A stretch of 64,000 nt of DNA, taken from NCBI RefSeq assembly GCF_013122565.1, contig NZ_CP053258.1; one strand, written 5' to 3'. Under the pieces are notes generated by a model that worked only from the letters and a program-made list of their open reading frames with translations, did not search any database and was not told where the DNA came from. A program made the position numbers and the translations under genes. Numbering within the stretch: the first letter of the stretch is position 1; the number at the start of each line of letters is the position of its first letter. Below, piece after piece: positions 20,456 to 45,050 of the stretch. This DNA is from Escherichia coli. GTDB taxonomy: Bacteria > Pseudomonadota > Gammaproteobacteria > Enterobacterales > Enterobacteriaceae.

Positions 20456-21506
20456 GCGCGATGCAATCAATCATATTCGGCAGTTTGGCGGGCGTCTGGA
20501 TCGCTTCCGTAAATCGGTCGGCGGCTCTGGCGACGGCGGTCGTAACGCGCCGAAACGCGCGAAATCCTCGCCAAAACCGGTAAATCGCAAAACCAACGTT
20601 TTCAACGAACAGGTGCGCTATGCCTTCCACGGCGCATTGCAGGATCTGAAAAGCAAACCGTTCGCCACGTTTTTAACGGTGATGGTTATCGCCATCTCCC
20701 TGACGCTGCCCAGCGTCTGTTATATGGTGTACAAAAACGTTAACCAGGCGGCGACGCAGTATTATCCGTCACCGCAAATCACTGTTTACTTGCAAAAAAC
20801 GCTGGACGATGACGCCGCTGCGGGCGTGGTGGCACAGTTGCAGGCCGAGCAAGGCGTGGAGAAAGTGAACTATCTTTCTCGTGAAGATGCACTGGGCGAG
20901 TTCCGTAACTGGTCTGGTTTTGGTGGTGCGCTGGATATGCTGGAAGAAAACCCGCTTCCGGCAGTGGCGGTGGTGATCCCGAAACTCGATTTTCAGGGGA
21001 CGGAGTCACTCAATACGCTGCGCGACCGTATCACGCAGATTAACGGCATTGACGAAGTGCGGATGGATGACAGCTGGTTTGCCCGCCTGGCGGCGTTGAC
21101 CGGGCTGGTCGGGCGCGTTTCGGCGATGATCGGCGTGTTGATGGTGGCGGCAGTGTTCCTCGTCATCGGTAACAGTGTACGCCTGAGTATCTTTGCTCGT
21201 CGTGACTCCATTAACGTGCAGAAACTGATTGGTGCAACGGATGGTTTCATCCTGCGCCCGTTCCTGTACGGTGGCGCATTGCTGGGGTTTTCTGGCGCAT
21301 TGTTGTCACTAATTTTGTCAGAAATTCTGGTACTGCGATTGTCATCGGCGGTTGCGGAAGTGGCACAGGTTTTCGGAACGAAGTTTGATATCAATGGCTT
21401 ATCGTTCGATGAATGCCTGCTATTGCTGCTGGTATGCTCGATGATTGGCTGGGTGGCAGCGTGGCTTGCCACGGTACAACATTTACGCCACTTTACGCCT
21501 GAATAA
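20448..21506 (+). CDS. ftsX: Cell-division ABC permease-like protein FtsX
   Basis: 352 aa from the ATG that overlaps the ftsE stop. Confidence 0.9.
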
Positions 21507-21524
21507 TAAAAGCGTGTTATACTC

Positions 21525-21558
21525 TTTCCCTGCAATGGGTTCCGTAGCAGGGAAAGAG
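21525..21558 (+). other. Hairpin between ftsX and rpoH (tctttccctgc...gcagggaaaga), possible partial terminator in the rpoH promoter region
   Basis: Inverted repeat read directly; no strong T-run follows. Confidence 0.35.
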
Positions 21559-21750
21559 ATCCCGTTGTCTCTTCCCGGTATTTCATCTCTATGTCACATT
21601 TTGTGCGTAATTTATTCACAAGCTTGCATTGAACTTGTGGATAAAATCACGGTCTGATAAAACAGTGAATGATAACCTCGTTGCTCTTAAGCTCTGGCAC
21701 AGTTGTTGCTACCACTGAAGCGCCAGAAGATATCGATTGAGAGGATTTGA

Positions 21751-22605
21751 ATGACTGACAAAATGCAAAGTTTAGCTTTAGCCCCAGTTGGCAACCTGGA
21801 TTCCTACATCCGGGCAGCTAACGCGTGGCCGATGTTGTCGGCTGACGAGGAGCGGGCGCTGGCTGAAAAGCTGCATTACCATGGCGATCTGGAAGCAGCT
21901 AAAACGCTGATCCTGTCTCACCTGCGGTTTGTTGTTCATATTGCTCGTAATTATGCGGGCTATGGCCTGCCACAGGCGGATTTGATTCAGGAAGGTAACA
22001 TCGGCCTGATGAAAGCAGTGCGCCGTTTCAACCCGGAAGTGGGTGTGCGCCTGGTCTCCTTCGCCGTTCACTGGATCAAAGCAGAGATCCACGAATACGT
22101 TCTGCGTAACTGGCGTATCGTCAAAGTTGCGACCACCAAAGCGCAGCGCAAACTGTTCTTCAACCTGCGTAAAACCAAGCAGCGTCTGGGCTGGTTTAAC
22201 CAGGATGAAGTCGAAATGGTGGCCCGTGAACTGGGCGTAACCAGCAAAGACGTACGTGAGATGGAATCACGTATGGCGGCACAGGACATGACCTTTGACC
22301 TGTCTTCCGACGACGATTCCGACAGCCAGCCGATGGCACCGGTGCTCTATCTGCAGGATAAATCATCTAACTTTGCCGACGGCATTGAAGATGATAACTG
22401 GGAAGAGCAGGCAGCAAACCGTCTGACCGACGCGATGCAGGGTCTGGACGAACGCAGCCAGGACATCATCCGCGCGCGCTGGCTGGACGAAGACAACAAG
22501 TCCACGTTGCAGGAACTGGCTGACCGTTACGGTGTTTCCGCTGAGCGTGTGCGCCAGCTGGAAAAGAACGCGATGAAAAAACTGCGCGCTGCTATTGAAG
22601 CGTAA
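21751..22605 (+). CDS. rpoH: Heat-shock sigma factor sigma-32
   Basis: 284 aa with sigma-70-family regions 2 and 4. Confidence 0.95.
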
Positions 22606-22625
22606 TTTCTGCTATTAAGCAGAGA

Positions 22626-22658
22626 ACCCTGGATGAGAGTCCGGGGTTTTGTTTTTTG
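22626..22658 (+). terminator. Rho-independent terminator of rpoH
   Basis: accctgga...tccggggt stem followed by ttttgtttttt. Confidence 0.55.
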
Positions 22659-22874
22659 GGCCTCTGTAATAATCAATTTCCCCTCCGGCAAAACGCCAAT
22701 CCCCACGCAGATTGTTAATAAACTGTCAAAATAGCTATTCCAATATCATAAAAATCGGGTATGTTTTAGCAGAGTATGCTGCTAAAGCACGGGTAGTCAT
22801 GCATAAAACGAAATAAAGTGCTGAACAACAACATCACAACACACGTAATAACCAGAAGAATGGGGATTCTCAGG

Positions 22875-24127: not shown

Positions 24128-24394
24128 ATGTCTGCTGTTAAAAAGCAGCGTATCGATCTGCGTTTAACTGACGATGACAAAAGTATGATTGAGGAAGCTG
24201 CAGCGATATCTAATCAGTCCGTCAGCCAATTTATGTTGAACAGCGCTTCGCAGCGGGCTGCGGAAGTGATTGAACAGCATCGGCGGGTGATCCTCAATGA
24301 GGAATCCTGGACGCGGGTGATGGATGCGCTGAGTAATCCACCGTCACCAGGTGAAAAGCTAAAACGTGCGGCAAAACGTCTTCAGGGAATGTAA
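24128..24394 (+). CDS. DUF1778-type antitoxin (AtaR/TacA-like) of a GNAT toxin-antitoxin pair
   Basis: 88-aa ORF 6 bp upstream of a GNAT-toxin-like ORF; family assignment by resemblance. Confidence 0.65.
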   Translation: MSAVKKQRIDLRLTDDDKSMIEEAAAISNQSVSQFMLNSASQRAAEVIEQHRRVILNEESWTRVMDALSNPPSPGEKLKRAAKRLQGM

Positions 24395-24400
24395 TAATTT

Positions 24401-24928
24401 ATGGATGATCTGACGATAGAGATTCTGACCGATGATGCAGATTATGATCTACAGCGATTCGACTGCGGCGAGGAAGCGTTAAATCTCTTTCTGACGACAC
24501 ATCTAGTTCGTCAACATCGCAACAAAATTCTGCGAGCGTATATCCTTTGTCGCAACACTCCAGAACGTCAGGTGCTGGGATATTACACATTATCCGGCAG
24601 TTGTTTTGAACGAGCCGCATTGCCCTCGAAATCGAAACAGAAAAAAATTCCCTACAAAAATATTCCCAGCGTCACTCTTGGGCGTATGGCAATTGATCGT
24701 TCATTACAGGGGCAGGGATGGGGAGCAACACTGGTTGCTCATGCCATGAAAGTCGTCTGGTCAGCCTCTTTAGCAGTAGGTATTCATGGTCTTTTTGTAG
24801 AGGCGCTGAATGAAAAAGCCCATACGTTTTATAAATCGCTGGGCTTTATCCCGTTGGTCGGAGAAAACGAAAATGCGTTATTTTTCCCAACCAAATCCAT
24901 TGAACTGCTTTTTACACAGAGCGATTAA
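24401..24928 (+). CDS. GNAT-family acetyltransferase toxin (AtaT/TacT/ItaT-like, tRNA-acetylating type)
   Basis: 175 aa with acetyl-CoA-binding RMAIDRSLQGQGWGATLV motif; paired with the upstream DUF1778 ORF. Confidence 0.7.
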   Translation: MDDLTIEILTDDADYDLQRFDCGEEALNLFLTTHLVRQHRNKILRAYILCRNTPERQVLGYYTLSGSCFERAALPSKSKQKKIPYKNIPSVTLGRMAIDRSLQGQGWGATLVAHAMKVVWSASLAVGIHGLFVEALNEKAHTFYKSLGFIPLVGENENALFFPTKSIELLFTQSD

Positions 24929-30568: not shown

Positions 30569-30686
30569 TTTATCAATAACCCGGCAGCTAAGTTCTGCCG
30601 GGTTATTTGTCTGTATACAGACTTGTTTCAACTGACCGGGAGGATTAAAAACTGTCCACTTATTTGCCACGGAAAGGTTCCCTCCC

Positions 30687-45003: not shown

Positions 45004-45015
45004 TTACTGCGACAA

Positions 45016-45050
45016 ATTACTGCGAGCTTGCTCGCAGTAATTCATTTCTC
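45016..45050 (+). terminator. Rho-independent terminator of gntU
   Basis: Perfect 12-bp stem attactgcgagc/gctcgcagtaat followed by T-rich sequence. Confidence 0.6.

Follow-up and report, generated by a model that had tools for sequence, protein, structure and literature searches.

Organization of the ftsX-rpoH spacer

The hairpin considered here is located between ftsX and rpoH of Escherichia coli, in a cluster whose gene order is ftsY-ftsE-ftsX-rpoH-livJ according to the RefSeq annotation of the identical locus. All positions refer to the window, that is, the whole 64-kb stretch of DNA that was analysed. On its plus strand, ftsX ends with the stop codon TAA at 21504-21506 (ORF list and RefSeq annotation of the identical E. 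coli locus), another TAA comes next in the same frame (21507-21509), and the ATG of rpoH is found at 21751. Positions 21507-21750 represent the entire ftsX-rpoH spacer, and the hairpin alone occupies 21522-21558. A window position w is converted to the chromosome of K-12 MG1655 by the relation K-12 coordinate = 3622534 - w. The region belongs to the E. coli chromosome: among 5426 complete genomes of this species, 5425 match a 551-nt stretch around the hairpin. The hairpin is identical in K-12 and in the window, and a single base separates the two spacers: position 21560, two nucleotides past the stem, is a T here and a C in K-12. With this T, the foot of the stem acquires a GATC Dam site (21558-21561). 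Over positions 21510-21580, 990 of 5423 E. coli genomes are the same as the window; all the others carry at least one different base, K-12 differing at 21560.

The hairpin is formed on the plus strand by a left arm, CTCTTTCCCTGC (21522-21533), and a right arm, GCAGGGAAAGAG (21547-21558), both supported by an inverted-repeat search, by folding and by alignment. These arms constitute a perfect stem of 12 bp and enclose a loop of 13 nt, AATGGGTTCCGTA (21534-21546), which is deduced from the fold and varies freely in sequence and length among relatives. Four further pairs can be drawn within this loop between 21535-38 and 21542-45, namely A35-U45, U36-G44, G37-C43 and G38-C42. The preliminary description of this DNA had reported an 11-bp stem lying 20 bp after ftsX. 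The inverted repeat is indeed real, but its stem comprises 12 bp plus the four inner pairs and begins 15 nt past the end of the ftsX stop codon.

The plus strand RNA folds with a free energy of -25.6 kcal/mol (z = -5.25), a value that none of 200 shuffled sequences equalled. Four loci of the 64-kb window carry a perfect stem of 12 bp or more around a loop of 3-20 nt, whereas 30 dinucleotide-preserving shuffles of the same window contained on average 0.1 such loci and never more than 1. The three other perfect hairpins of at least 12 bp (loop of 20 nt at most) are located at 2401-2433, 30575-30607 and 45015-45042. The hairpin sequence is single-copy, with 5427 places in 5423 E. coli genomes and a median of one per genome, and a REP element was ruled out on this basis. 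A scan of positions 21000-22700 with the Rfam covariance models gave nothing overlapping the hairpin, even at E <= 10.

The stem is followed by the tail ATCCCGTTGT in the window strain and ACCCCGTTGT in K-12, beginning respectively with ATCCCG and ACCCCG. The absence of a T-run, already noticed in the preliminary description, is borne out by this tail and by a consensus promoter and terminator scan, which places no terminator at the hairpin. An intrinsic terminator was defined as a G+C-rich stem-loop with a U run of at least 5 of 8 nucleotides beginning 0-2 nt after it, and no such run accompanies this stem.

A promoter of rpoH interlocked with the hairpin

The left arm is not only half of a stem. 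Immediately upstream, the plus strand carries the extended -10 element TGtTATACT, composed of TG at 21515-16, one spacer base and the hexamer TATACT at 21518-23, and supported by the sequence itself, by its conservation among variants and by a 5'-triphosphate start. The 12-bp stem opens with the last two bases of this hexamer, and the RNA start is found 8 nt downstream of the hexamer, at 21531 (K-12 3601003, +/-1 nt, plus strand of the window), well inside the left arm, which doubles as the discriminator and start region of the promoter. This start, 220 nt upstream of the rpoH ATG, was taken from the M9 sheet of a SMRT-Cappable-seq study in which whole 5'-triphosphate transcripts were sequenced from cells grown in M9 and in rich medium (Yan et al. 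2018, PMC6131387). The corresponding rpoH row, 3599880-3601003 on the reverse strand of K-12, counts 55 reads at the start, 18 of which reach the rpoH terminator (PMC6131387). The promoter lacks a good -35 element and was missed by the consensus promoter scan.

The promoter at 21515-21531 is P1, the distal sigma-70 promoter of rpoH. The rpoH promoters P1, P3 (sigma E), P4, P5 and P6, together with boxes for DnaA, CRP and CytR, were reportedly described by Erickson in 1987, Fujita and Ishihama in 1987 and Ramirez-Santos in 2001, and a terminator-like structure after ftsX was reportedly noted in the 1980s. Text searches of the literature, with the classic rpoH promoter papers outside their reach, returned no published terminator or hairpin between ftsX and rpoH.

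The usual picture of this spacer has to be corrected accordingly. The hairpin had been placed upstream of the rpoH promoters, and this does not apply to all of them: the -10 element of P1 touches the stem and its start lies inside the left arm, so that the distal rpoH promoter is interlocked with the ftsX 3' structure instead of being located downstream of it. With no more than about 3 nt of the left arm retained in P1 RNA, the hairpin is restricted to RNA arriving from upstream and can never form in P1 transcripts. Any mutation aimed at the hairpin or at P1 thus touches the other. This interlocking is the sole feature of the locus that might repay experiment.

Conservation of the hairpin among relatives

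Relatives were sampled with a 21-mer of the sigma-E promoter, a region situated about 110 nt past the hairpin, which makes the sampling independent of it. The scan covered metagenome contigs, with E. coli itself excluded. It yielded 117 usable Enterobacteriaceae-like loci, reduced to 64 distinct variants of the hairpin region. All 64 fold the hairpin, with free energies ranging from -12.6 to -24.2 kcal/mol and a stem starting 0-3 nt past the -10 hexamer, and in none is it followed by a T-run or U-tract. The weakest variant (-12.6) comes from a low-coverage contig with apparent indel errors and was omitted from the later counts; the others fold at -16.4 or better.

Across 32 distinct hairpin sequences, the core arms CUUUCCCUGC and GCAGGGAAAG, which form ten core pairs, are almost invariant, and the loops differ both in sequence and in length (13-19 nt). 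The same 32 variants keep the T1 and G2 of the extended -10 element and a TATAMT hexamer invariant or nearly so. Paired cells represent 89.6% of the alignment, against 41-60% when the partner arm is slid. Two-sided changes concern four pairs and nine cells, and none of 500 shuffles reached this cell count or the covariation score. The few U-G pairs observed are possible only in plus strand RNA. As judged from these aligned and mutually related sequences, the evidence for the hairpin across relatives is mostly one of conservation, with a modest share of covariation.

A second survey, based on RpoH in species-representative genomes, showed that the ftsX-rpoH synteny is widespread. This sample is composed mostly of distant Proteobacteria and includes only two close Enterobacteriaceae, Citrobacter werkmanii and Enterobacter sp. 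Bisph1, where TGnTATAAT is directly followed by the same arms with a different loop. In Acerihabitans, the extended -10 element is kept and this hairpin is absent. Photorhabdus caribbeanensis (L003) carries 18-39 nt past the ftsX stop a different U-less hairpin of 8 bp, CAGGCTGA...TCAGCCTG, and U-less hairpins are found 20-60 nt past ftsX in several other lineages. In non-enteric gamma- and beta-proteobacteria, the consensus repeats of the CIRCE/HrcA operator, TTAGCACTC-N9-GAGTGCTAA, are observed between ftsX and rpoH, about 30-260 nt past the ftsX stop (loci L021, L031, L046, L054, L058, L064, L077 and L078). Their presence suggests that rpoH may be controlled by HrcA in those lineages.

Mapped 3' ends of the ftsYEX transcripts

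The preliminary description had proposed 3'-end mapping as a check of its hairpin, and transcript 3' ends do map at this place in two independent public K-12 datasets. The steady-state 3' end of the ftsYEX transcripts is located at 21563-21564 on the plus strand, 5-6 nt past the stem and within the tail A-T/C-C-C-C-G. The first dataset is again SMRT-Cappable-seq (Yan et al. 2018, PMC6131387), the second sheet of Supplementary Data 1 listing on the reverse strand a row 3600970-3604315 that covers b3464, b3463 and b3462 and is typed 'novelTTS'. In this row, 633 reads begin at the ftsY start site; at 3600970 (window 21564), 146 reads end and 69 pass, 43 of the latter stopping within 50 bp, with a median read-through of 70 nt (PMC6131387). 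The second dataset, a TRS analysis of RNAtag-seq data, gives a peak at 3600966-3600976 with a dominant position at 3600971, labelled 'Primary ftsX', and a further terminus at 3600883 (window 21651) labelled '5' UTR rpoH' (PMC10687069, Supplementary Data 2). Adams et al. 2021, whose curated Term-seq lists cover three conditions, give no 3' end at 36009xx-36010xx, so that the ftsYEX end is not among the strongest in every dataset.

Beside the ftsYEX row, SMRT-Cappable-seq contains no row joining the ftsY start to the rpoH terminator. In the absence of such a co-transcript terminus, rpoH is in practice insulated from ftsYEX transcription, as proposed earlier. The two devices put forward for this insulation fared less well. 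An intrinsic terminator, even a partial one, is unlikely with a C-rich tail devoid of a U-tract, and a processing site cutting a long ftsYEX-rpoH precursor finds no support. Cleavage of such a precursor by RNase III or another processing activity was rejected, as the 3' end falls beyond the stem and the ftsYEX row has no co-transcript terminus beside it.

The tract downstream of the stem and the rest of the spacer

The RNA that follows the stem has a distinctive composition. In the 40 nt of 21559-21598 (plus strand), C outnumbers G by 13 to 5, and this bias is gone beyond about 21600. This C-rich, G-poor and pyrimidine-rich tract is a candidate Rho loading (rut) region, delimited by a composition count, an inverted repeat and a duplex test. 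Within it, the segment TCTCTTCCC (21568-76) shows complementarity to the hairpin's right arm.

A second stem-loop is present on the plus strand at 21611-21645, within the read-through zone, and was identified as an inverted repeat folding at -13.7 kcal/mol. Its arms are inverted DnaA-box-like sequences, TTATTCACA (21612-20) and TGTGGATAA (21636-44). It also overlaps GAACTT, the -35 element of the sigma-E promoter. The TRS 3' end at K-12 3600883 (about 21651) is situated 6 nt past this second structure. Slightly further, Adams et al. 2021 (Supplementary file 2) list a bicyclomycin-sensitive 'Rho termination region' at 3600870 (window 21664), with a p value of 1.1e-11 and a Rho score of 1.92, just under the two-fold guide of the authors and computed on 800-nt windows that include the rpoH promoters. 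Because of these promoters, a promoter activity induced by bicyclomycin could mimic read-through. The second 3' end and the bicyclomycin-sensitive region lie 87-100 nt beyond the ftsYEX 3' end.

Other features of the spacer concern rpoH itself. A very strong Term-seq 3' end at 3600802/3600804 (window 21730-21732), 19-21 nt upstream of the rpoH ATG, was tied by its authors to the rpoH RNA thermometer (Adams et al. 2021). It directly follows a stem CTGGC...GCCAG and implies that the 5' UTR gives rise to an abundant RNA fragment. The rpoH leader also contains a sigma-54-type -24/-12 element, TGGCAC-N5-TTGCT, at 21695-21710, consistent with the reported binding of the RpoN holoenzyme to the ftsX-rpoH spacer in vitro (PMC8743547). 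Past livJ, two adjacent plus strand ORFs separated by 6 bp, 24128-24394 (88 aa) and 24401-24928 (175 aa), resemble by eye a small antitoxin followed by a GNAT-type acetyltransferase toxin.

A probable protective 3' stem-loop of the ftsYEX mRNA

Starting from the observed structure, its conservation, the mapped 3' ends, the short read-through and the P1 start inside the arm, the hairpin is probably best regarded as a protective 3'-terminal stem-loop of the ftsYEX mRNA, Rho-dependent release taking place downstream. RNA polymerase coming from the ftsY promoter would pass the ftsX stop codon and the hairpin, where it would not halt because no U-tract follows the stem. It would be released within the next 70-110 nt or so, most likely by Rho, which would load on the untranslated, C-rich and G-poor RNA beginning right after the stem. 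The ragged ends would then be trimmed in the 3'-to-5' direction by PNPase and RNase II down to the stable stem, leaving the precise tail of 5-6 nt. Rho is the presumed releasing factor at this locus, and exonuclease trimming and a stabilising effect of the hairpin are likewise presumed. The hairpin would in this manner fix and stabilise the end of a cell-division message and, together with the downstream termination zone, would keep ftsYEX transcription out of rpoH. Such a scheme would explain how the end of the ftsYEX message is set, and why its transcription spares the gene of the heat-shock sigma factor, whose dosage is tightly controlled.

Several observations weigh against this scheme. 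The ftsYEX 3' end is missing from the curated Term-seq lists, the Rho score is open to a contribution of the rpoH promoters, and the excess of C over G is limited to about the first 40 nt. The arm sequences are conserved far beyond what blocking an exonuclease needs, which points to an extra constraint, and the use of the left arm by P1 is the likely one. In addition, P1 transcripts share the downstream tract and nevertheless extend to the rpoH terminator in 18 of 55 reads, a fact that a simple model based only on a rut site does not explain.

Intrinsic termination at the hairpin is unlikely on account of the ACCCCG that follows the K-12 stem, of the lack of a U-tract in any relative and of the position of the end, 5-6 nt from the stem. 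A related proposal would make it a terminator, or a strong pause site, acting through the hairpin alone: release would occur 5-6 nt downstream without U-tract or Rho, and about one third of the polymerases would escape. This reading is improbable, even if several data speak in its favor. The 3' end is precise and placed just past a very stable stem, the 146 reads ending against 69 passing resemble the output of a leaky terminator, and the design would be selective, as P1 RNAs devoid of the left arm do pass, 18 of 55 reads reaching the rpoH terminator. The K-12 tail ACCCCG would nevertheless give a strong rC:dG hybrid where a U-tract is expected, and the consensus terminator scan was negative. 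In E. coli, intrinsic termination usually generates a 3' end 7-9 nt past the stem and within the U-tract, which is not the geometry found here. Furthermore, the bicyclomycin-sensitive region and the second 3' end are both located downstream, and ends at U-less stem-loops are generally the products of trimming (Dar & Sorek 2018).

The different fate of ftsYEX and P1 transcripts could also be accounted for by a switch in which the hairpin and P1 constitute one interlocked unit sorting transcripts by their origin. In ftsYEX RNA, the right arm would be locked in the hairpin, the C-rich tract would remain single-stranded, and Rho would load, the RNA being terminated and trimmed. In P1 RNA, the free right arm would pair with the pyrimidine tract, thereby masking the Rho entry site or building a protective 5' hairpin, and transcription would continue into rpoH. 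The position of the P1 start inside the left arm fits this idea, as do the P1 reads that reach the rpoH terminator when ftsYEX reads stop within about 70 nt; the latter comparison is made on small read counts. The right arm GGAAAGAGA is complementary to TCTCTTCCC at 21568-76, and the paired segment changes from lineage to lineage in both sequence and position. Pairing of the right arm with the downstream tract beats dinucleotide-preserving shuffles of the tract in 48 of 48 distinct variants (median z = -1.7, 42% of them individually at p < 0.05), which are related and do not amount to 48 independent trials. A purine-rich arm beside a pyrimidine-rich tract, however, pairs easily by composition; no consensus for a second hairpin emerged from an RNAalifold run on 21 diverse leaders of P1, and in E. 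coli this leader folds no better than its shuffles (z = -1.33). The switch is on balance a shade more doubtful than release by the hairpin alone. If true, it would represent a terminator evaded by a promoter whose start lies within it.

To our knowledge, no regulator has the ftsX palindrome as its site. A role at the DNA level, either as a cruciform or as the operator or upstream activating sequence of a dimeric protein that would regulate rpoH, for instance through P1 or through the sigma-54-type promoter about 150 bp downstream, is very improbable: both arms are conserved in sequence instead of covarying freely, the palindrome overlaps P1 and lies about 150-175 bp upstream of the TGGCAC-N5-TTGCT element at 21695-21710, and the RpoN holoenzyme binds the spacer in vitro (PMC8743547), but from one relative to another the arms stand 13 to 19 bp apart, with changes in spacing and helical phase where a dimeric operator would keep its half-sites at a fixed spacing, the double changes preserve pairing, the U-G pairs fit only plus strand RNA, and the RNA 3' ends map exactly at the 3' foot of the palindrome.

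Comparison with known systems

A protective stem-loop of the kind proposed above belongs to a type of element already described genome-wide, and its 3' end was already present in public supplementary tables. The spacer as a whole resembles the described multi-promoter region of rpoH, both by its distal sigma-70 promoter, located over 200 nt ahead of the ATG and conserved in enteric bacteria, and by the sequence GAACTT-N16-TCTGA at 21631-57. With the canonical intrinsic terminators, the hairpin shares a stable stem-loop soon after a stop codon and an RNA 3' end near its foot; it differs from them by the lack of a U-tract, the C-rich tail, the end 5-6 nt past the stem and the negative consensus scan. 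Like the REP/BIME elements, it is an intergenic palindrome able to block 3' exonucleases, but it occurs as a single copy per genome and is not a REP sequence.

The closest resemblance is with the transcripts analysed by Dar & Sorek 2018, in which Rho-dependent RNAs end precisely right after stable stem-loops without a U-tract, 24% of these ends being located at REPs. These ends are followed by a mild bias of C over G and arise when RNAs terminated at diffuse sites are trimmed back by PNPase and RNase II (Dar & Sorek 2018). The ftsX hairpin displays the same features: a stable stem-loop (-25.6 kcal/mol) with no U-tract, a precise steady-state 3' end a few nucleotides on, an excess of C over G directly downstream, and, further away, diffuse ends and a region listed as bicyclomycin-sensitive. 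Unlike the class as known, its membership is deduced from structure, mapped ends and composition, Rho and the exonucleases being given presumptive roles. It also stands apart by arms that are conserved in sequence across genera, and by a stem that doubles as the promoter start region of the next gene, a feature undescribed for this class.
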